This document shows, piece after piece, positions 3,308-61,006 of a stretch of 64,000 bases of DNA. Within the stretch, counting starts at the first letter, position 1, and each line of letters begins with the position of its first letter. A program made the translations under genes and the position numbers. The stretch is from Candidatus Poribacteria bacterium (GTDB lineage Bacteria; Poribacteria; WGA-4E; WGA-3G), in the NCBI GenBank assembly GCA_965200205.1, contig CBDAUI010000002.1, positions 599,218 through 663,217 of the forward strand. The letters are read 5' to 3'. The notes below the pieces were generated by a model. That model worked only from the letters and a program-made list of their open reading frames with translations, did no database searches and was not told the origin of the DNA.

Positions 3308-3453
3308 GTTTTTAGCCGTCAGCCATCAGTTTTCAGTTGGCTGATAACTGACAATGACAACCATTGAAACTGATGGCTGGTTGCTGATCGCTGACGGCTG
3401 CCAACTAAATTCTATGGACAATTCAACAAGCGTTGTGGTATACTATATACACT

Positions 3454-8883: not shown

Positions 8884-8977
8884 GGGGGAGGATAGGGTCC
8901 GGTGGCCCTACCGGTCTTCAAAACCGGATAGTCCATACACGTGGATTGGTGGGTTCGACTCCCACCCTCTCCCGCCA
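8884..8977 (+). tRNA. selC: tRNA-Sec (selenocysteine tRNA, anticodon UCA)
   Basis: 94 nt. 8-bp acceptor stem GGGGGAGG/CCTCTCCC (one G-U). Anticodon stem CCGGT/ACCGG with loop CTTCAAA, anticodon TCA at 8918-8920. Long variable arm. 5-bp T-stem GTGGG/CCCAC with TTCGACT loop. Discriminator G plus encoded CCA. The 8/5 acceptor/T geometry is the bacterial tRNA-Sec form. Confidence 0.85.
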
Positions 8978-9975: not shown

Positions 9976-10217
9976 CAGGCGTGTCCATTTCAGTATTTAG
10001 ACACCATTTAGAACTACGATTTCTGATCGAAAATTTTCGGTATTTACATAAAACCTGATTTTTGCTAAACTACTTAGGAGTTGGATGCACTCTGTTTGCA
10101 GGCGAGGTTTCATGAAGATTAAAAAATTAATTCGGTAATTTATTGACGAAGCCGATGCAGTTGCAAACCGTACTATTAAGTGTCAATTTTAGAAATAACA
10201 ACCGTCGCAGACCCAGG

Positions 10218-10262
10218 TCTGGTAGGTTCGGTTTGCAACCGAACCGGATTCTACGCGGAAAT
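10218..10262. repeat. Dispersed ~45-bp palindromic hairpin element, copy 1
   Basis: tcYGGTAGGTTCGGTTTGCAACCGAACCGGATTCTACGCGGAAAT; 44/45 identical to 55615-55660; 9-bp stem GGTTCGGTT/AACCGAACC. Confidence 0.7.
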
Positions 10263-13996: not shown

Positions 13997-14755
13997 ATGA
14001 GGAAAAGGGAAATGACAGACGAACAAAAATACCTATTTGACTTACAAGGTTTCATCGTGTTAGAGGGAGTTATCCCGCAGTCAGTGATTGCTGCGTGTAG
14101 TGCTGTGTTAGATCAATATGAGAATATGCCGCCTGAAGATTATCCGCCTCCACTGTGCCTCGGTACACAGCGAACGGAGAAGGAACTCTATATCTCCAAT
14201 ATTCTGGAGGCAGACAGGGTCTTTAACGCGCTTATTGACATTCCAGAGGTACTGGACGTAATTCAAGGCGTAACCGGCGGTCCCTACCGGCTCAATCACA
14301 CCTATACGATTTATAGGTGGGGCGGCGGCTATACCGGACTGCACATGCATGGAACACCCATTATCCCGAAATGCCAATACCACTGCAAAAACGGAGAGAT
14401 GGTTTCAACCTTAACGAAGGCAGTTTTTCCGATGCTGGATTGCGACGTGGAAGATGGTTGTTTCGCTGCTATACCGGGGGCACACAAAAGTAATTTTCCC
14501 AAACCTTGGGGAAACCACCCTGATGAGAACCCTGTGTTAAGCCCGATTCCAGCGAAAGCAGGGGATGCCATTATCTTTACGGAGGCACTCACACACGGGT
14601 CTGTCATCAATGTTTCTGGCAAACCGCGTCGGACGCTTTATTACTGTTACAGTATCGGTTATATGCCGGATTGGGGTGGTCAAGGTTTGCATTTCAGCCC
14701 GAACGTCATGGCAAGCCTCACTGAAGTTCAGCAGTCAATCCTTCATCTTAAATAG
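13997..14755 (+). CDS. Phytanoyl-CoA dioxygenase (PhyH) family Fe(II)/2OG oxygenase
   Basis: N-terminal YLFDLQGFIVLEGVI and overall PhyH-like layout; assigned from motifs only. Confidence 0.6.
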   Translation: MRKREMTDEQKYLFDLQGFIVLEGVIPQSVIAACSAVLDQYENMPPEDYPPPLCLGTQRTEKELYISNILEADRVFNALIDIPEVLDVIQGVTGGPYRLNHTYTIYRWGGGYTGLHMHGTPIIPKCQYHCKNGEMVSTLTKAVFPMLDCDVEDGCFAAIPGAHKSNFPKPWGNHPDENPVLSPIPAKAGDAIIFTEALTHGSVINVSGKPRRTLYYCYSIGYMPDWGGQGLHFSPNVMASLTEVQQSILHLK

Positions 14756-14805
14756 TTGTCAGTACGATTTTTTCTCCGAAAAAAATCTTTCAGTTGTCAG
14801 TTACC
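14748..14805. repeat. ~55-bp repeat element at a gene 3' end, copy A
   Basis: TTAAATAGTTGTCAGTACGATTTTTTCTCCGAAAAAAATCTTTCAGTT; contains the AT hairpin GATTTTTTC/GAAAAAAATC; supplies the TAG stop of the PhyH-like gene. Confidence 0.7.
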
Positions 14806-14988
14806 CTGTTGTGGTTTTAGGGTATGTTGTGGAATCCAAAAGAAAACTAACAATCACAAGATGTTAACCGAATACTGATAACCGACAACCGATAACTATT
14901 AAAATTGATAACTGAAAGCGTAGCGTACTGATAACTAATAACTATTCCCTCTAACAACTGAGAACTACTAAAAAGGTAAATTTAAAAT

Positions 14989-16164
14989 ATGATTTCATTT
15001 TCGGAACGGTTACAAAAACTTCCACCCTATCTCTTTGTAGATTTGCGTCAAAGGATGCAGGCAGCGAAAGCGCGAGGCGTTGATGTCATTAGCCTCGGCA
15101 TCGGCGATCCCGATTTCCCGACACCGGATCCAGTCGTTGGGGCACTCGTGCAGGCGATCCAGAATCCTGAAGATCCAAACCGGCATCGCTATGGATGCGA
15201 CATCCCTGTTGAGGATTTCCCGCAAGCAGTGCTCGACTTTTATCAACGGCGTTACGGCGTTACGCTTGCCGAAGATCAAGTCGCTACGACGCTCGGTAGC
15301 AAGGATGCGATCGTTAAATTGGCACTCGGCATCCTCAATCCTGGGGATATCGGCATTGCAGCAAGTCCGGGGTACCCGACATATAACATCGGACACGTTT
15401 TTGCGAGTGCGACGACGTACTACGCACCGATTCTGCGAGAAAACGATTTTTATGTTGACTTTGATGCGATTCCTGATGAAATCAAACGTCTTGCCAAAGT
15501 CCTCTGGATCAATTATCCGAACAACCCGACGACGGCGACTGCTGATCTTGATTTTTTCGAGCGTGCTGTGGAATTTGGAAGGCAGAATGACATCCTGATT
15601 GCGCACGACAACGCTTATAGTGAAAATACGTACGATGGCTACCATTCTCCGAGCATCTTGCAGGTCGATGGTGCTGCTGAGGTTGCTGTCGAATTCTTCT
15701 CATTGAGTAAAGCGTTTAATATGACCGGATGGCGATTAGGGTTTGTCGTTGGGCATCCGGCTGCCGTGAGTGCCGTCAAGACGGTTAAAGACAACATTGA
15801 TAACGGTTCACTCCGCGCACTTCAGTTTGCCGGGGCGCAGGCACTGTCGATGGCAGAGGAGATCACACCCGCAATAAATGCTGTTTACGAAAAACGGCGG
15901 GATGTTGTTGTAGATGCTTTGGCAGAGAGCGGATGGGAGATAGAAAAACCGAAGGCGACAATATATGTGTGGGCACCAGTCCCACCGCGTTTCGACGGTT
16001 CGAGTCGCGCTTTTGCAACAGCACTCCTTGAAGAAGTCGGCGTTGTCGTGACACCCGGACTCGGATACGGGCAGTGGAGCGAAGGGTACTACCGAATCTC
16101 ACTCACTTATCCTGATGAAGTCATCAGTGAAGCGATTTCACGTCTCCGTGATTTTGCACATTAA
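14989..16164 (+). CDS. PLP-dependent class I/II aminotransferase, probably LL-diaminopimelate aminotransferase (DapL type)
   Basis: N-terminal LPPYLF...ISLGIGDPDFPTP resembles DapL; 391 aa; sits in a dapB-containing neighbourhood. Confidence 0.7.
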   Translation: MISFSERLQKLPPYLFVDLRQRMQAAKARGVDVISLGIGDPDFPTPDPVVGALVQAIQNPEDPNRHRYGCDIPVEDFPQAVLDFYQRRYGVTLAEDQVATTLGSKDAIVKLALGILNPGDIGIAASPGYPTYNIGHVFASATTYYAPILRENDFYVDFDAIPDEIKRLAKVLWINYPNNPTTATADLDFFERAVEFGRQNDILIAHDNAYSENTYDGYHSPSILQVDGAAEVAVEFFSLSKAFNMTGWRLGFVVGHPAAVSAVKTVKDNIDNGSLRALQFAGAQALSMAEEITPAINAVYEKRRDVVVDALAESGWEIEKPKATIYVWAPVPPRFDGSSRAFATALLEEVGVVVTPGLGYGQWSEGYYRISLTYPDEVISEAISRLRDFAH

Positions 16165-16217
16165 ATAGTTGTCAGTCGTCAGTACGATTTTTTCCGCGAA
16201 AAAATCTTTCAGTTTGC
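16161..16217. repeat. ~55-bp repeat element at a gene 3' end, copy B
   Basis: TTAAATAGTTGTCAGTCGTCAGTACGATTTTTTCCGCGAAAAAATCTTTCAGTT; ~90% identical to copy A with a 7-bp internal duplication (CGTCAGT); supplies the TAA stop of the aminotransferase. Confidence 0.7.
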
Positions 16218-16323
16218 CTCGCAGTGAGAGTTAAAAAGTGTCCAGTGGTTTCCAGTTAAAAGTTAACAGGAAAAGAGAGTTCTGGTAACTGGACACTGAT
16301 AACTGTTAACTAATCCTCTCTGG

Positions 16324-19300
16324 TTGATAATGCTTATGATATTACAAACTAACTTCCGTTTAGAAAGTTTCAGACATCTACAAACGCGGGCTAAAAACCT
16401 GCTTCTATTAGTGGTTAGTATCGTCTTTGGTGCGGTTCTCGTTTGTGGTGGTGTAAGGGCTGATCAGGTTCAGACGTATACCGTTGCTGATGGCTTGGTG
16501 GGTCCTATTGTCCCTGTTATTTTCCAAGACAGTCGGGGCGCGCTTTGGTTCGGTTCCGATCGCGGTGGCGTAAGCCGGTTTTACGACAACACTTTTAAAT
16601 CGTATGTCGGATCCTTGAACACTTATGAGGATGTTGAAGCAGGTGCACTGCTCGGACAGACGCGGCAAATCGTTGAGGATAAATGGGGACACATCTGGTT
16701 TCTCACACGTGTTCCGTCAGAAAAATCGGGTAGAGTTAGCCGGTTTGACGGTAAGTCGGTCAGTTATGTCGGCACCGGGAACTCCATTATCACAGATCAA
16801 CACGGTGATATATGGGTCGGTGAAAATCATGTGCTAACGCAGTACGTGACACCGGGGGTCGAAAGATTACCGCAGCCTCAACCTCATGAAATCATAGGTG
16901 AAGATCTAATCAAATCGACAACTTTGACGATAAATGTCGTTTTTGAAAGTGAAGATGGAACGCTCTGGCTCGGCGGGAGTGAAGGTGAAGCGGCAATAAA
17001 TGGTGTCATCCTAAGTTTTCGTGGGAACCGTTGGAGACGTGTGGTACCTGATGAAGGTAACGGGAGCGACGAGGCTGAAACGGAGGTCGGCACGCCGCGT
17101 ATTCATCCAAACGCCGGTTTTACACGACACGATGTGTCCAGCCTTAATGTGGTTAGCCCGGTCGAGGCGATCGCTGAAGATTCTATCGGCAATCTTTGGT
17201 TCGGCGGCGATAATCTCCTTCTCCGCTTTGATGGTATAGATTTTCAACAGATTCTTCCTACATGGTCTTACACCGGACGCAAATCTTCAGATGAAACGCC
17301 ATTGAGAAGACCGGCTTCAATTAAGATTGATGCAAAAGGAGATGTGTGGTTTAGCGATGAGCGACCCGCAAGACGGTGGGACGGCTCTAACCTCCGTACA
17401 CCCAGAGATGTACACGGGTTTCTTGAAATTGAAGATAAATGGAACAACCTATGGTTCATCAGCGAAGGCCGTGGTGTCCGTCAATATAATTCCGACTTTG
17501 AGCTCCTTTTAGATAACGCGAATAGTAGACTCGAAAACGATGAAATCCGAACAATATTTGAAGCCGTTGACGGTAAATTGTGGTTCGGACACAACAACGG
17601 TGTAACAATCCTTGATCCGACACCTGCAGTGATTACACATGCGAAACTGGGGACCAGTCGGGTCCGCACGATGTATGAGGACAGTCGCGGTTACCTCTGG
17701 TTCAGCGTTCCAGGTGCTGTCGCGCGTTATGATGCCAAGATAGATGAGATCACAACAGCATCATTCAGGCTAAGTGATGAGCGAAATGAGGCTGGGACTG
17801 AACCAAATATGAACCGGCGCTCTCAGGCTGAAATCGTGAAAATATTTGAAGTCGGCAGGGATGTCTGGTTTATTAATGAACCGGTATCCCGGAGCACTTC
17901 AACGCGATATACATTCTTCCGCTACGCAAATGGGAGCTACGGGCCCCAAATCTCTATTTCTGTCCGCACAAAAATCGGTCCTGGCGGTGACAGGTCAGAT
18001 AGCGACCCGAGTGTACTTCTTAGCGGAGGCGAATATGTTTGGATGGCTTTTGGCGGACATCTTTTCAAAGCAGACACCATGGGGCTTTTGTGGATCACAG
18101 ATAGAAGTACACAAAGAATCCTATTTCAAAAATCCTCTGAAATAGATAGTGCGACCCCTACGCTTCAGATAGACCCAGGACCCGTTCCGATAACAGATTT
18201 ATATAGAGATTCAGCGGATAGGTTATGGGTGCATTTCGCCAACGGGAGCGTAAAACGCTATCCCAAGGATATCAATCTTGCGTCGCCTACAATGAGTTCT
18301 ATCCCGCCGGACCTGCTGCGGCTCAAAGCAACTCACCTTGTAAAATCGACACCGGAAGATAAATGGTATTTCAACGCAATGACAGGAAAGTTGATACGCT
18401 GGAGCGACATCGAATCTGGCAAACCAATTATCCTTGATGGTGAATCAAGTGCCGCACCACTCGCAGTCTGGCAAGAACCTGCCAGTCAGATCGATAGAAT
18501 CACTTTCGTCTTTTCTGATGCGCTTAGGACCTACCACGGTAAAATGCTAAGAACTGTTGATCCTATCGGTCCAATCGATACTGTAAACGCTTCTCTGATT
18601 ACGAGAGATGGCGTTCTCTGGTTAGCGACATCCCACGGTGCCGTCCGATACGATGGAGAAAGACTCAGGACATATACGAGGAAGGAAGATGGTTTTCTTG
18701 TGGATAATGTCCGCGATGTTGTAGAAGACAGTCGCGGAAATATATGGTTCGCGACAAGAGGTGGCGGTGCCGTCCGATATGATGGTGAAACTTTCCACAG
18801 TCGAACGACGAAAAACGGGTGGGCACACAATAACATCTCAAAAATCCTTGAATCTTCTGAGAAAGACATCTGGTTTGCGACTGAAGGCGGTGTTACACAG
18901 TATACACCCGCGCGGGGCGGGTTACCAGAGTGCAGAATAATCAGCTTGGAGGCGGATAAGTCTTACAGCGATTTCTCGTCGAGTTTAGTTTTACCGACGC
19001 GCGGTGCTAAAACTTTCAATGTTCGCGGACTCAGCTCACTTCGAGAAGGTCTTTCTTATCAATTTAAATTGATTGGGTTGGACACACCAACCTGGATGAA
19101 CGTCTCCGCGGAGGACTTCGCGAATCTTCCTGTCGTCTCCACCGCGCGAGCAGACGAATGGACCCCATTTGCCGGATCCATTGCGACGGAGCAACAGAGC
19201 CTCAATAATATCGGTGTTACGCAGGAGATCCAGAACCAAAACGGTATTTTGCGGATTCGATACGCCGGGCTTAAGGCAGGACATTATACTTTCCTCATCA

Positions 19301-20247
19301 AGGCGTTCCGCAAAGGTTGGCACTACACGGCACCGCCTGCAATTGTGGATTTTAATATCCCGCCGCCGATCTGGACACGTTGGCGAACGTACTTACCGAC
19401 CTTCATCTTCATAACTGTTGTATTTGCACTGGTGGGTCGTTTGATACTCAACCGGCGACACACACTCCAGTTGCGGAATGAGATGCGAGAGAAAGAAGAA
19501 GCCGAAATGCAGCGTATCCGCGCGGAGTTAAGCGAAGCACAGAATATTCAAATGGGTCTATTGCCGCCAGAGGCACCGGACATGAAAGGGTTTGAAGTCG
19601 CTGGCATGTCGGTTCCTGCAACACAGGTCGGTGGTGATTTCTACGATTACCTAACTGTAGAGAACGGGCAGACCGCAATCGCGGTGGCGGACGCTGCGGG
19701 GAAAGGCTTACGCGGTGCGATGAACGCCGTGCTGACAAACGGGATGTTGTATGAAGTCTCGCGCTACAAATCCGAAGCTGCGGTTATTCTGAGTGATCTC
19801 AACGCCGGGTTAGCACCGCGGATGTACGGTCCCAGTTTCATCGCACTTAACTTAGCTATCCTCGATGAAACGAATAAACGGATCAACTACGCGAACGGTG
19901 GACAACCGTATCCTATTCTCAAACGCGGCGAGGAGGTCATTGAGATTGAAAACAGTGATCTGCCACTCGGTAGTATGAAAAGGGTGGTCTATGAGTCCAG
20001 TACGATTGAGTTAAGCGATGGCGATACATTAATCTTCCATACCGATGGCCTTATCGAGGCACTCAACGCAGAGGGAGAGATGTATGGGACGGAGCGTTTT
20101 AAGCAATCGGTCTCTCAGATGTCTGATGATTTCAGTGCCGAAGATATTATCCAGCACATTGTGGACGACGTTCATGAATTTGTCGGTGACGCTGAGCAGT
20201 ATGACGATCTTACGATTGTTGTTATCAGGCTACGTTCCGATGTATAG
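16324..20247 (+). CDS. Sensor protein: periplasmic two-component-regulator propeller/Y_Y_Y domains, TM helix, coiled coil, PP2C/SpoIIE serine phosphatase domain
   Basis: N-terminal TM; repeated GxLWFG(S/T) propeller motifs; Y_Y_Y-like YQFKLIG segment; TM helix at PTFIFITVVFALVG; C-terminal SpoIIE motifs GDFYDY, VADAAGKG, HTDGLIEA, YDDLTIVVIRL. Confidence 0.8.
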   Translation: MIMLMILQTNFRLESFRHLQTRAKNLLLLVVSIVFGAVLVCGGVRADQVQTYTVADGLVGPIVPVIFQDSRGALWFGSDRGGVSRFYDNTFKSYVGSLNTYEDVEAGALLGQTRQIVEDKWGHIWFLTRVPSEKSGRVSRFDGKSVSYVGTGNSIITDQHGDIWVGENHVLTQYVTPGVERLPQPQPHEIIGEDLIKSTTLTINVVFESEDGTLWLGGSEGEAAINGVILSFRGNRWRRVVPDEGNGSDEAETEVGTPRIHPNAGFTRHDVSSLNVVSPVEAIAEDSIGNLWFGGDNLLLRFDGIDFQQILPTWSYTGRKSSDETPLRRPASIKIDAKGDVWFSDERPARRWDGSNLRTPRDVHGFLEIEDKWNNLWFISEGRGVRQYNSDFELLLDNANSRLENDEIRTIFEAVDGKLWFGHNNGVTILDPTPAVITHAKLGTSRVRTMYEDSRGYLWFSVPGAVARYDAKIDEITTASFRLSDERNEAGTEPNMNRRSQAEIVKIFEVGRDVWFINEPVSRSTSTRYTFFRYANGSYGPQISISVRTKIGPGGDRSDSDPSVLLSGGEYVWMAFGGHLFKADTMGLLWITDRSTQRILFQKSSEIDSATPTLQIDPGPVPITDLYRDSADRLWVHFANGSVKRYPKDINLASPTMSSIPPDLLRLKATHLVKSTPEDKWYFNAMTGKLIRWSDIESGKPIILDGESSAAPLAVWQEPASQIDRITFVFSDALRTYHGKMLRTVDPIGPIDTVNASLITRDGVLWLATSHGAVRYDGERLRTYTRKEDGFLVDNVRDVVEDSRGNIWFATRGGGAVRYDGETFHSRTTKNGWAHNNISKILESSEKDIWFATEGGVTQYTPARGGLPECRIISLEADKSYSDFSSSLVLPTRGAKTFNVRGLSSLREGLSYQFKLIGLDTPTWMNVSAEDFANLPVVSTARADEWTPFAGSIATEQQSLNNIGVTQEIQNQNGILRIRYAGLKAGHYTFLIKAFRKGWHYTAPPAIVDFNIPPPIWTRWRTYLPTFIFITVVFALVGRLILNRRHTLQLRNEMREKEEAEMQRIRAELSEAQNIQMGLLPPEAPDMKGFEVAGMSVPATQVGGDFYDYLTVENGQTAIAVADAAGKGLRGAMNAVLTNGMLYEVSRYKSEAAVILSDLNAGLAPRMYGPSFIALNLAILDETNKRINYANGGQPYPILKRGEEVIEIENSDLPLGSMKRVVYESSTIELSDGDTLIFHTDGLIEALNAEGEMYGTERFKQSVSQMSDDFSAEDIIQHIVDDVHEFVGDAEQYDDLTIVVIRLRSDV

Positions 20248-22176: not shown

Positions 22177-22324
22177 AGAGACTCCTCTGGAGGAAGTTAC
22201 CAATAACCAGTAGCCAGTAACCAGTTAAGAGACGTTGGATTCACCGAATACCTCCTTTACTGGTAACTTTGATCAACAACTCGTTTGTAGATACTTTTGC
22301 TAAGGCGCGAGTTGTTGGTCAAAA

Positions 22325-30261: not shown

Positions 30262-30367
30262 TAAGAAAAATGCTGCATTAGTACGCGACGCAATTTTGTG
30301 CTATAATGGTAATGTGTAACGAACACAGTGTGGTGTTTTATAACAACATTTCAGAAGGAGAAGTACC

Positions 30368-30661
30368 ATGTCATATTCTGATGCTACCTCTGAAACCATC
30401 GCCGCCCGCGGCGAAGAAATCTATCAGCAGTACCGCGAAGAACTCGAAGCTCAACACAAAGGTCAGTTTTTTGTAGTTGACATTGAAACGGAAAACTATG
30501 AAATCGCCGATGAGGATTTGGAAGCGACAAAACGTCTGCTTGCTAAGAATCCCAAGGCTATGACTTACGGGGTGCGAATCGGATACCCGGCCACCCACGG
30601 TATCGGCTTCAGCTTCGTAGAATGGAATGTGGAATACTATAATGATAACAGGGAAAATTAG
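30368..30661 (+). CDS. Small conserved hypothetical protein (copy A of a duplicated pair)
   Basis: 97 aa; ~65% identical to the 31022-31288 product (shared SETIAARGEEIYQ...FVVDIETENYEIADEDLEAT); preceded by a TGnTATAAT extended -10 at 30298-30306. Confidence 0.6.
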   Translation: MSYSDATSETIAARGEEIYQQYREELEAQHKGQFFVVDIETENYEIADEDLEATKRLLAKNPKAMTYGVRIGYPATHGIGFSFVEWNVEYYNDNREN

Positions 30662-31010
30662 AGACGAACGTGTAGCTATCATTGAAGTGGAAGTGATCGG
30701 CTTAAATCAACGCGCGAAAATTGAGGCAACTCTTGATACCGGATTTACGGGCTATCTGACACTACCAGAGTTTTTAGTTGACTACTTAAGGCTTCCATAG
30801 ATTGGTACTCGGCACACAATTATTGCTCATGGAAGAGCAGTAATCCTTGACCTGTATCTTGCCAAAGTGATTTGGCACGGCAAAGAACGCGATATAGAAG
30901 TTCTGCAAACAGACAAGCAACCGTTAATCGGTATGTCGTTGCTTCGCGGAAGTCGTGTAACACTTGATGTTGTGCCAGATGGCGACGTAACGATTGCTCC
31001 GCTGCGATAG
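30642..31010 (+). pseudogene. Retropepsin-like (clan AA) aspartic protease gene with an in-frame TAG at 30798-30800
   Basis: MITGKIRDERVAIIEVEVIGLNQRAKIEATLDTGFTGYLTLP carries the catalytic D-T-G. The same frame continues after the TAG with ...VILDLYLAKVIWHGKERDIEVLQTDKQPLIGMSLLRGSRVTLDV, a retropepsin C-terminal-like segment. The ATG overlaps the 3' end of the upstream small gene. Confidence 0.55.
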
Positions 31011-31021
31011 GGAGAATCACT

Positions 31022-31288
31022 ATGCTATATTCTGATGAGACCTCCGAAGCCATCGCTGCCCGCGGTGAAGAAATCTATCAGTCCTTGAAGGATGAGCTTG
31101 AATCTCAATACAAAGGCAAAATTTTTGTAGTTGACATTGAAACAGGGAACTATGAAATTGATGATGAGGATTTAGAAGCTACAGCCTGTCTCTTTGCGAA
31201 GAATCCCGACGCTGTTACTTATGGTTTACGCATTGGCTTCGTACCTATCTATAAACTCGGTTTTAGATCTTACGGTTGGAAACCTTAA
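31022..31288 (+). CDS. Small conserved hypothetical protein (copy B)
   Basis: 88 aa paralog of the 30368-30661 product. Confidence 0.6.
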   Translation: MLYSDETSEAIAARGEEIYQSLKDELESQYKGKIFVVDIETGNYEIDDEDLEATACLFAKNPDAVTYGLRIGFVPIYKLGFRSYGWKP

Positions 31289-43097: not shown

Positions 43098-43153
43098 GGA
43101 CTTATACAAACGCCTGCTGGTGAGATTTTCCGATCTCACCGATGGATAGGGAT

Positions 43154-43264
43154 TCACTAAAAAACGTGAGTCCTATCAACTATGCGCAACACTGCAGGTG
43201 GGGTTTGTAACCCCACCTACTATAAAGATTCATCAAAAAACGTGAGTCCTATCAACTATGCGCG
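43154..43264. repeat. Two 34-bp direct repeats flanking a perfect hairpin
   Basis: TCAYYAAAAAACGTGAGTCCTATCAACTATGCGC at 43154-43187 and 43230-43264 (33/34 identical) around the hairpin GGTGGGGTTTGTAACCCCACC (43197-43217). Confidence 0.7.
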
Positions 43265-44691: not shown

Positions 44692-44814
44692 GAGAATGGT
44701 TATCAGTTACCAGTTATCAGGCATCAGTTAAAGAGACCGCTGATGCAATCCAGATCCCCTTAACTGATAACTGTTTTCACTGCGAAGCATGATAATTGAT
44801 GACGCTTAGGAAAT

Positions 44815-54507: not shown

Positions 54508-54544
54508 CCGGATGCCTACTGACAACTGAAAACTACTAAAAAAT

Positions 54545-55597
54545 ATGCTTTATTCAATTATTGTAAGCGCGGGCTTAGAAAATATGGCGCGCGAGGAACT
54601 ATCAGAACGCTTCGGGAACACCGGACATCTGAAGAACATCGAACGCAAACCGCAGCGCCTCATTTTTCAATACACGGGGAACCCGCGTGAATTACTATCT
54701 CTCCGAACAGCCGAACACCTCTTCCTCATCCTGAAGCAGCTGCCGAAAATGACACGTTCACGCAGTTCATTGGCAGTGCTGAGTGGTTCACTCACACGCT
54801 TCAATTTCAGAGAGATGTCCGAATGCTGTCGGCAGGTCGGTATCAATCTCCGAAAGCGGATGCCGTTCCGTGTGACGAGCCGACTCTCAGGGAAACGGAA
54901 CTTCCGACGCATAGACCTACAACGTGTTATTGAACAGGCACTGTTAGCGCGTGGGTGGTATCTAACTTCTGGACGCTCAGCGTTGGATGTCTGGGCAGAA
55001 GTACACGGAGACGACGGCTATATCAGCGTCAAACTCTCTGGGAACGATATGGCACAGCGTCCGTACAAACAGGCACATATCCCGGCATCCCTGAAACCGA
55101 CGGTGGCGTACAGCATGGCGCGCCTCTCACGTCCACACCCGACCGATGTCTTCTTAGATGCGATGTGTGGTGCCGGCACTATCCTCTTAGAGCGTGCCCT
55201 GATGGGGCGTTATGATTACTTAATCGGCGGCGATGTCTCCACAGACGCGTTGGATGCGACCCTCGCGAACTTCGGTAGGAAACATCAACCGCGCCAATTT
55301 TTTCATTGGGACGCACGCAAATTGCCGCTGCAGCGAAGGACAGTCGATAAGATCGTCTCTAATCTTCCGTTTGGTGAGACTATCGGAAATCTGCCGCAAC
55401 TGACGAATCTATACCGCTACACGCTGAGGGAATATGCCCGCGTCCTGAAACCGAGAGGGCGGATGGTACTCTTGACTTCACAGCGTACGACCCTCGACGA
55501 CGAATTGGAACGGTTACACTTTCTTGATGTCCGTCAAAGGTTGACGGTAGATGTCCGCGGAAAAAAGGCGTGGATATACGTCATCCGCTTCGCCTAA
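54545..55597 (+). CDS. THUMP-domain class I SAM-dependent RNA methyltransferase (RlmL/Trm14-like)
   Basis: N-terminal THUMP-like region; SAM-binding motif DAMCGAGTILLE; motif IV NLPFGE. Confidence 0.75.
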   Translation: MLYSIIVSAGLENMAREELSERFGNTGHLKNIERKPQRLIFQYTGNPRELLSLRTAEHLFLILKQLPKMTRSRSSLAVLSGSLTRFNFREMSECCRQVGINLRKRMPFRVTSRLSGKRNFRRIDLQRVIEQALLARGWYLTSGRSALDVWAEVHGDDGYISVKLSGNDMAQRPYKQAHIPASLKPTVAYSMARLSRPHPTDVFLDAMCGAGTILLERALMGRYDYLIGGDVSTDALDATLANFGRKHQPRQFFHWDARKLPLQRRTVDKIVSNLPFGETIGNLPQLTNLYRYTLREYARVLKPRGRMVLLTSQRTTLDDELERLHFLDVRQRLTVDVRGKKAWIYVIRFA

Positions 55598-55614: not shown

Positions 55615-55660
55615 ATCCGGTAGGTTCGGTTTGCAACCGAACCGGATTCTACGCGGAAAT
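55615..55660. repeat. Dispersed ~45-bp palindromic hairpin element, copy 2
   Basis: 44/45 identical to 10218-10262; overlaps the last 4 codons and the stop of the Gfo/Idh/MocA gene at 55649-56740. Confidence 0.7.
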
Positions 55661-60831: not shown

Positions 60832-61006
60832 CACTTTGTTATTGGAACTGTTTTGAACTGGTAGCCTCAATACGCGTATTGAGGCTACAATCAATTTGTA
60901 CTATTGGAAAATGCGTGCCATAGACTGAATGAAGATTAATTTATTAATTCGGTAATTTCTTTGGCGGTCCGGTTCGGTTTCAAACCGAACCTACAAGGAG
61001 ACTCCA

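Follow-up and report, generated by a model that had tools for sequence, protein, structure and literature searches.

REP/BIME sequences and REPINs of Proteobacteria are mosaic extragenic palindromes that lie in operons and after stop codons, and they are thought to affect mRNA stability, not termination. Miniature inverted-repeat transposable elements, or MITEs, also occur inserted in bacterial operons, for example the Correia elements and Chunjie of Geobacter. Arrays of tandem heptamers with tiny palindromes nested in them have been known from cyanobacteria since 1990-2008; their origin and function are not established. The cyanobacterial STRR heptamers were reportedly described by Mazel in 1990. 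The small dispersed repeats (SDRs) of Nostoc, said to have been treated by Elhai et al. in 2008 (Genome Res 18:1484), are reportedly imperfect palindromes of 21-27 nt, present in high copy number and embedded in tandem heptamers in a fixed context, which differ between orthologous sites without a transposase or an obvious target duplication. Here we analyze a repeat element in a stretch of 64,000 nucleotides from a Candidatus Poribacteria bacterium (contig CBDAUI010000002.1; "the window"), where two ~55-base copies lie at the 3' ends of two consecutive genes. The closest known kinds are the TAACTGA/STRR heptamer arrays, the Nostoc SDRs and the REP/BIME mosaics. In our judgement the element is probably a selfish or near-neutral mosaic palindromic repeat that has spread across Candidatus Poribacteria in intergenic slots, and not a terminator.

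Direct repeats of the heptamer TAACTGA occur in marine Beggiatoaceae, some Cyanobacteria and Bacteroidetes; such arrays have been known in giant sulfur bacteria since 2015, in a paper that does not mention Poribacteria (MacGregor 2015, PMC4679880). They lie mostly just upstream of start codons, often with no Shine-Dalgarno sequence, some overlap stop codons, and they change in 7-nt steps; forward arrays contain stop codons in all three frames (PMC4679880). They are also present inside ribosomal protein operons of Beggiatoaceae, and their function is unknown, with translational regulation being proposed (PMC4679880). In 'Maribeggiatoa' almost only TAACTGA is repeated, with 169 direct sets versus 1 inverted set (PMC4679880). 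The Poribacteria arrays share with these repeats the 7-nt unit family, the arrangement in intergenic tandem sets (2-6 units), the position near starts, the overlap with stops, the 7-nt steps and a patchy phyletic distribution. In contrast to the TAACTGA repeats, they mix four units, form inverted pairs of fixed polarity that make up a stop-to-start hairpin, and carry nested cassettes.

The nested cassette resembles the reported Nostoc SDRs in being a dispersed palindrome of 23-24 nt set in heptamer arrays with fixed orientation and context. The phylum is a different one, however, and the likeness is one of form and setting; a covarying stem in constant flanks and the stop-to-start scaffold are Poribacteria features that we cannot attribute to SDRs. 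With REPs and REPINs the element has in common that it is a short, high-copy, extragenic imperfect palindrome whose inverted units form a bigger hairpin. Unlike a REP, it has an A/T-rich instead of a G/C-rich stem, is built on a heptamer-array scaffold, and has cassette flanks that in nearly all copies read CAGTACG (5') and CTTTCAGT (3'), without the GTAG/CGTC tetranucleotide tag that marks most REPs (PMC3733652). Our literature search retrieved no description of such repeats in Poribacteria and no paper pairing "Poribacteria" with "heptamer".

Two copies and their composite hairpins

The sequence-only reading of the window had placed a ~55-base repeat at 14748-14805 (copy 1) and 16161-16217 (copy 2). 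On re-reading, both copies were present as written on the + strand, and the open reading frames (ORFs) ended as it had said. A repeat search paired 14748 with 16161 over a block identical at 16/16 positions, and 14754 with 16174 over a 31-nt block of 90% identity. A heptamer that only copy 2 has in addition, CGTCAGT, accounts for the 7-nt difference between the two block offsets. An alignment of the copies with MAFFT was discarded for its poor register, the repeat-search blocks describing the relation better. The 24-nt core ACGATTTTTTCNNCGAAAAAATC has two sites only in the window (0.01 expected from shuffles), and the 16-mer TTAAATAGTTGTCAGT has 2 exact and 4 near matches, compared to 0.43 expected.

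Folded alone, the 57-58-nt pieces did not exceed shuffles in stability (z -0.2 to -0.6). The entire spacer after the first gene (spacer 1) folds into a long hairpin of -58 kcal/mol (z -4.5), and the entire spacer after the second gene (spacer 2) into one of -44 kcal/mol (z -2.1). The 55-mer, which had been taken as the unit, is thus one arm of a composite hairpin of 145-185 nt: it is the left, stop-side half of a bigger structure of the form (NNNCAGT)n – loop – (ACTGNNN)m. Both arms are built from 7-nt units; those of the left arm read NNNCAGT (TTGTCAG, TTTTCAG, …), those of the right arm ACTGNNN (ACTGATA, ACTGACA, …).

Composite hairpin 1 (14753..14937, +) was predicted by RNAfold to have an outer stem pairing 14753-14766 with 14924-14937 and a second stem pairing 14787-14802 with 14903-14918, with a variable loop region at 14803-14902 and a small hairpin (14768-14784, +) branching from the left arm. 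The AT-rich hairpin of 9-10 bp noted earlier was confirmed: it has a 9-bp stem and a 3-nt loop, at ~-5 to -6 kcal/mol as RNA or DNA. The left terminus (14753..14763, +) consists of the terminal units TAGTTGTCAGT of the CAGT arm, and its (T)nATAGTT motif recurs beside stop and start codons. It is followed by cassette copy 1, ACGATTTTTTCTCCGAAAAAAATC (14764..14787, +; T6/A7, loop TCC), and by the heptamers TTTCAGT TGTCAGT (14788..14801, +), in which TTTCAGT forms the cassette's constant 3' flank. The ACTG arm (14903..14937, +) contains ACTGAAAGCGTAGCGTACTG at 14911-14930, the reverse complement of the cassette minus its two 7-nt A/T runs. Additional forward units, AACTGAG AACTACT AAAAA (14956..14976, +), lead to the ribosome-binding region of the second gene, whose start codon is at 14989.

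Composite hairpin 2 (16164..16307, +) has an outer stem pairing 16164-16176 with 16295-16307, a further helix pairing 16178-16180 with 16292-16294, and an inner hairpin at 16237-16290; RNAfold helices also give a small hairpin at 16186-16206 (+). Cassette copy 2, ACGATTTTTTCCGCGAAAAAATC (16184..16206, +; T6/A6, loop CGC), has TGTCAGT CGTCAGT before it and TTTCAGT (16207-16213) after it. Next to it lies module B, TTGCCTCGCAGTGAGAG (16214..16230, +), a second recurrent module with many Poribacteria copies in either arm, and the ACTG arm CTGGTAACTGGACACTGATAACTGTTAACTA is at 16282..16312 (+).

The gene before hairpin 1 is a PhyH-family gene (13997..14755, +; ORF and Pfam PF05721), and that before hairpin 2 is a class I/II aminotransferase gene (14989..16164, +; ORF, Pfam and orthologues); the next gene after the aminotransferase encodes a Reg_prop/SpoIIE phosphatase (16324..20247; ORF and Pfam). 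The string shared by the two copies overlaps both stop codons, in different registers, and the sequence-only reading had held that the element provides the stop in each case. For PhyH this stood: hairpin 1 opens with its first unit, TAGTT, at the gene's TAG (14753-14755), and the terminal TAG of the element doubles as the stop codon. For the aminotransferase it did not: its native TAA (16162-16164, with the element directly after it) is kept in orthologues with empty spacers (loci L109-L113 and L116 of our comparison) and is therefore not supplied by the element. Since element-free orthologues retain the first 5 nt of the 55-mer (TTAAA / TTAA+A), these belong to the native coding and stop sequence, and the element itself starts at (A)TAGTT.

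The end of the PhyH protein, …LHLK, is identical in all orthologues compared. In the window, L109-L111 and L114-L116 the gene stops with TAG, after which comes TTNTCAGT; the orthologues lacking the TAGTT array stop with TGA (L112/113) or TAA (L117 and L118). Among 38 distinct stop-side contexts, TAA was used in 18, TAG in 16 and TGA in 4. The TAG was that of the array's TAGTT in 12 contexts, and (A)TAGT came directly after the stop in 9 more, so that the stop was overlapped or abutted in 21/38. The same terminal motif (TTTTATAGTT…) also lies beside start codons of opposite-strand genes; the TAG therefore belongs to the end of the element and was not created by selection for a stop.

Spread in Candidatus Poribacteria and the nested cassette

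We scanned one genome per species with the query ACGATTTTTTCNNCGAAAAAA and obtained at least 108 matches. Among the matches listed, which were examined, at least 85 or so loci came from at least 24 Candidatus Poribacteria species genomes, along with one unclassified metagenome-assembled genome (MAG) with identical flanks. The listed matches outside Poribacteria were isolated ones in unrelated DNA or belonged to a separate repeat family of rumen Neisseriaceae, and none of those listed for the core was from a cyanobacterial genome. Further copies thus exist, and the earlier REP/MITE-type assignment holds in the sense of a lineage-specific dispersed palindromic repeat adjoining gene ends. All Poribacteria copies listed had one orientation and one setting, …NTCAGT – core – TCTTTCAGT…, with the fuller consensus …(A/T)TAGTT NTCAGTT NTCAGT – ACGATTTTTTCT(G/A/C)CGAAAAAATC – TTTCAGTT NTCAGTT AAGAG….

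The general architecture was read from 87-88 Poribacteria loci (~680 kb) chosen for containing the exact core. A full spacer reads: gene end – (T)nATAGTT(NNNCAGT)n – (cassette) – TTTCAGT(NNNCAGT)n – TTAAGAG…loop…CTCTTRTAA – (ACTGNNN)m AACTAT(A)n – gene. Strict heptamer arrays numbered 331 in 681 kb, each of 2 to 15 units, with ACTGAAA (21%), ACTGACA (19%), ACTGATA (16%) and ACTGTTA (14%) as units; ACTGATA is TAACTGA in another frame. CAGT and ACTG words share spacers (odds ratio 8.3, p = 5e-17), and the CAGT arm precedes the ACTG arm in 88/93 spacers, including 29/33 that are cassette-free. Arm polarity is thus fixed, beyond what hairpin formation alone would require. The feet of the predicted hairpin were located in 57 co-directional spacers: the 5' foot lies a median of 1 nt past the stop codon (interquartile range, IQR, -2 to 5) and the 3' foot a median of 11 nt ahead of the start codon (IQR 5-22). 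The core is found in 71 co-directional, 6 convergent and 2 divergent spacers, compared to 152/28/25 for repeat-free spacers, a depletion in divergent spacers (p = 0.012). Small modules recur in either arm, namely TTGCCTCGCAGTGAGAG, as in window copy 2, and TTAAGAGACTTTGGAACTATCGAAAACCTC. In three genomes (L064, L011 and L096) the element lies with its cassette between rpsM (S13) and rpsK (S11), as identified by Pfam.

In the window itself, inspection of all spacers showed similar arrays in ~10 of them. Strict period-7 CAGT arrays were intergenic in 12/12 cases, with ~2 expected by chance, intergenic DNA being 15% of the window.

The cassette (23-24 nt) sits in the CAGT arm as CAGT–ACG-stem-C(TNC)G-stem'-C–TTTCAGT, with constant flanks and a variable stem whose pairing is kept. 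When the inserts between CAGTACG and CTTTCAGT were extracted from all loci, they formed a series, from a minimal CTGCG or CTACG over GTTG-CTGCG-CAAC, GTTTT-CTGCG-AAAAC, GTTTTT-CTTCCG-AAAAAC and ATTTTT-CTGCG-AAAAAT to the common form, ATTTTTT-CTNCG-AAAAAAT, with GAAC…GTTC and GAATC…GATTC as further variants. The minimal form is represented in the window by the insert in the opposite arm at 14911-14930, ACTGAAAG-CGTAG-CGTACTG. At least 8 different stems were found, nearly all perfect palindromes, with 5-9 Watson-Crick pairs from the outside in versus ~0.5 in shuffles.

In 128 copies of a generalised core the closing pair was A…T in ~110, G…C in 7, A…C in 5 and G…T in 0, and the run lengths of the stem varied jointly (T6/A6, T5/A5, T4/A4). 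CAGT precedes 90 and TTTCAGT comes after 92 of these 128 copies. In the loop, C-TNC-G, the middle base alone varies (G 55, A 22, C ~20); on the opposite strand the loop reads C-GNA-G, a type that forms very stable DNA mini-hairpins. Without exception the cassette lies on the CAGT strand, and a right-arm counterpart, ACTGAAAG-CGNAG-CGTACTG, is opposed to it; with the flanking genes as reference, 32 spacers have the cassette in sense and 25 in antisense orientation.

The rumen Neisseriaceae MAGs (L015, L020, L024, L029, L062, L081 and L094) carry a different multi-hairpin repeat of ~120 nt, at times in tandem, that terminates in an inverted repeat, TTCAGGCAGCCTGAA, resembling the DNA uptake sequence (DUS). 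It includes the identical 24-mer ACGATTTTTTCT(G/A)CGAAAAAATCT between constant flanks GGATTGCCACG…CTCGCAATGACAC. Elsewhere this slot (GGATTGCCACG…CTCGCAATG) holds hairpins with other stems: ATTTGAAC-GAAA-GTTCAAAT, CCTGAC-TGC-GTCAGG and CCGTGA-TTTC-ATCACGG. The Neisseriaceae slot follows the same logic as the Poribacteria cassette. An Rfam scan of one Neisseriaceae locus in E-value mode returned nothing meaningful.

The IMG/VR contig IMGVR_UViG_3300009936_000003 (L119, 200-560, -), which is filed as viral, also bears a typical element, one arm of which has two cassettes (variants A-T6 and G-T5). This contig may be a Poribacteria prophage or host fragment, and a single such contig is no evidence for a viral vector of the element.

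Other arrays in the window lack the cassette. A related heptamer hairpin, …CCGTCAGCCATCAGTTTTCAGTT…AACTGATGGCTG…GCTGACGGCTG, is at 3308..3407 and another, GGTTATCAGTTACCAGTTATCAGGCATCAGTT…AACTGATAACTG, at 44692..44778; a related array, TAACCAGTAGCCAGTAACCAGTT…TTTACTGGTAAC, at 22204..22260 is followed by the recurrent module TTTTGACCAACAACTCGCGCC… in reverse complement at 22286-22324 (no strand is assigned to these three). A forward array, ACTGACAACTGAAAACTACTAAAAAAT (54518..54540, +), abuts the start codon at 54545. The window further contains a second dispersed palindrome, GGTTCGGTTT(G/C)(C/A)AACCGAACC, at 10225-10245, 55623-55643 and 60971-60991, preceded in two cases by a shared AT-rich stretch …ATTAATTCGGTAATTT… (~10120-10150 and ~60935-60960). 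Ends like …CCCAGGCCCGGTA…, which resemble this palindrome, adjoin heptamer arrays in L022 and L047.

Apart from these repeats, a ~25-30-nt duplication, (C)AAAAAACGTGAGTCCTATCAACT, with ~72 nt between its copies, flanks a GC hairpin, GGTGGGGTTTGTAACCCCACC, in the spacer (43150-43257) before the gene at 43258. The long "spacer" at 30262-31193 holds two similar small frames, ATG(T/C)(C/T)ATATTCTGATG…GAAGAAATCTATCAG…, at ~30368 and ~31021, which look like a tandem small-gene pair missed by the 150-aa ORF filter. In an Rfam scan of the whole window in gathering mode, only a tRNA-Sec gene (8884-8973, +; RF01852, 76 bits) reached the gathering score; the organism therefore uses selenocysteine.

Change at orthologous sites

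The gene order BNR – PhyH – aminotransferase – SpoIIE is kept in the orthologous loci of Candidatus Poribacteria, where the aminotransferases are 82-98% identical. Spacer 2 measures 159 nt in the window, with element and cassette. It is empty in L109/L110 (86 nt; aminotransferase 98% identical), in L111 and L116 (92-94 nt; 95%), in L112/113 (44 nt; 88%) and in L118 (48 nt; 83%). In L114/L115 (97%) a different element occupies the same place, with the same initial ATAGTTGTCAGTT and a reverse-complement cassette variant in the right arm.

In spacer 1 a cassette lies at one position in the window (T6/A7), L109 (T8/A6) and L111 (T5/A5). L114 has a cassette-free left arm and two reverse-complement cassettes in the right arm, L116 and L117 have arrays but no cassette, and L112/118 have nothing. 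The junctions between cassette-bearing (window, L109, L111) and cassette-free (L116, L117) versions are blurred by heptamer variation. Differences by whole heptamers were also found within another orthologous set (L026/L044/L097/L099). Between two Poribacteria MAGs, L101 is without everything that L033 has from the A-run of the cassette to the next start codon (…CGAAAAAATATGAATTTC), a state that a deletion between short AAAAT repeats could explain.

Heptamer number, cassette presence, stem length, modules and the arm that bears the cassette thus differ where the flanking protein is 95-98% identical. The DNA of the element changes much faster than the flanking genes, by insertions and deletions.

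Nature of the element

We regard a selfish or near-neutral mosaic repeat as the probable explanation of these observations. Such DNA would grow and shrink by replication slippage in steps of 7 nt, and cassettes and modules would be gained or lost by copy-in without visible target duplication, whether through template switching, gene conversion between arrays or a hairpin-specific enzyme. Only insertions lying after a stop codon and ahead of the next ribosome-binding site would survive; with survival limited to this slot, the element would therefore abut or overlap stop codons, its terminal TAG at times serving as the stop. It would be co-transcribed with the flanking genes and may act on the mRNA as a large intercistronic stem-loop, whether by protecting the 3' end, by processing or by coupling the two cistrons.

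Several points weigh against this explanation. No mobilising enzyme was found, though candidates were not systematically searched. The comparison of filled and empty versions of spacer 2 showed no target duplication and no clean junction, the element replacing ~14 nt, and the "empty" sites resemble decayed right arms (…AAAGCACTGATCCATTAAC…) and may be remnants. The mechanism of propagation is therefore an inference. The near-invariance of the T6/A6 core is partly ascertainment, since the scan required T6/A6, and genes in the related loci were called by a crude longest-ORF caller. The sense strand folds slightly better than the antisense strand, in 49 versus 33 of 82 spacers (p ~0.08-0.1; 34:21 by minimum free energy in an earlier, smaller set of spacers), with equal G-U counts, so that a role at the RNA level is neither shown nor excluded. 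Finally, a selected function could instead underlie the fixed arm polarity, the defined termini and the preserved pairing.

One such function would be cis-regulation: the element would be a site through which a protein that binds RNA or DNA acts on translation, the role MacGregor proposed for TAACTGA, or, as a variant, a hairpin joining a stop codon with the next start. The positions fit: forward ACTGNNN units reach to within a few nt of starts, as in 'Maribeggiatoa' (PMC4679880). The hairpin feet lie at the stop and start codons (medians of 1 and 11 nt), the polarity is fixed, and the element is present in essential operons (rpsM-rpsK). As a stop-to-start scaffold it could couple the translation of adjacent cistrons in the manner of a shunt-like bridge. 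However, genomes 95-98% identical do without the element or have very different versions of it, which argues against a required role, and some copies lie between convergent genes with no start codon after them. There is no sense-strand bias in folding or G-U pairs, and with the 49:33 ratio and equal G-U counts we claim no signal of strand-specific RNA selection. We know of no binding protein for the heptamers or the cassette. We consider a regulatory site of this kind unlikely.

We rate no higher the possibility of a MITE or REPIN, in which an enzyme encoded elsewhere moves the hairpins or the cassette, either an IS630/Tc1-like enzyme (TA target) or a Y1 HUH enzyme (RAYT, IS200/IS605) that recognises a hairpin in single-stranded DNA (ssDNA). 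Like a MITE, the element has terminal inverted repeats, (T)nATAGTT(NNNCAGT)n … (ACTGNNN)mAACTAT(A)n, lies between cistrons without disrupting them, would be transcribed into a hairpin and has ends that can supply a stop codon. Its inverted termini, (T)nATAGTT…AACTAT(A)n, are defined irrespective of the neighbours, arm polarity is fixed in 88/93 spacers, and the element is present or absent at orthologous sites. The constant flanks around a hairpin conserved in structure would suit a site recognised by shape, and the C-GNA-G loop on one strand is of the very stable mini-hairpin type mentioned above. In contrast to a MITE burst, the copies are not uniform, with arm length, modules and loop varying from one locus to the next almost throughout; no target duplication was visible at spacer 2, the single filled/empty comparison. 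Where two copies occur at a locus, both have one orientation and are not inverted around a gene. To our knowledge there is no related autonomous element. The REP tag GTAG/CGTC (PMC3733652) is absent at the 5' end of the cassette (CAGTACG). Somewhat more doubtful still is the broader proposal that the cassette of 23-24 nt (ACG-stem-C·TNC·G-stem'-C) is an ultra-small mobile unit, copied into repeat scaffolds across phyla by a hairpin-specific ssDNA enzyme; what prompts it is the identical 24-mer in the Neisseriaceae repeat, in a slot that other hairpins can also occupy.

Other identities were rejected. The element matches no known Rfam family, an Rfam scan of 14700-16350 in E-value mode having given sub-threshold noise only. 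A sigma-70 promoter, TTGTCA + 17-19 nt + AAAAAT, is a poor match by eye and was not called by a scan, and half of the copies are antisense to genes. Integron attC sites and binding sites for IHF, Fis or DnaA do not fit by their consensus sequences.

The sequence-only reading had also offered a lineage-specific terminator module, a terminator or attenuator whose hairpin stops RNA polymerase after the upstream gene. Like a Rho-independent terminator, the stem-loop comes directly after the stop codon; it always adjoins the 3' end of one gene at least, divergent spacers are depleted (2/79 versus 25/205), and the stem-loops are very stable (~-0.28 kcal/mol per nt versus -0.22 in other spacers; z -4.5 for spacer 1). 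However, a T-rich tail (at least 5 T in the 8 nt after the hairpin) was found in 0/57 hairpins, their tails being 45% A. Around the hairpins the sequence is rich in T on the 5' side and in A on the 3' side, opposite to the flanks of a bidirectional terminator. A scan for consensus terminators called neither window copy. The small stem is A/T, the element occurs in either orientation, and it is enriched in co-directional and somewhat depleted in convergent spacers. In bacteria generally rpsM and rpsK are co-transcribed, and the element lies between them. The element is thus not an intrinsic terminator, and any terminator or attenuator function specific to the lineage is, of the explanations weighed here, the least credible.

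The element should not be annotated as a terminator. It affects gene calling, through TAG stops and start sites at the ends of arrays, and short-read assemblies are likely to be broken by such elements. Poribacteria, an uncultured phylum of sponge symbionts, are a fourth unrelated lineage with heptamer arrays, and their version is unusually orderly, with inverted arrays of fixed polarity spanning from stop codon to ribosome-binding site and a cassette whose stem covaries. With several closed Poribacteria chromosomes and many MAGs available, slippage rates, the gain and loss of cassettes, strand bias and any partner enzyme are measurable in this phylum.

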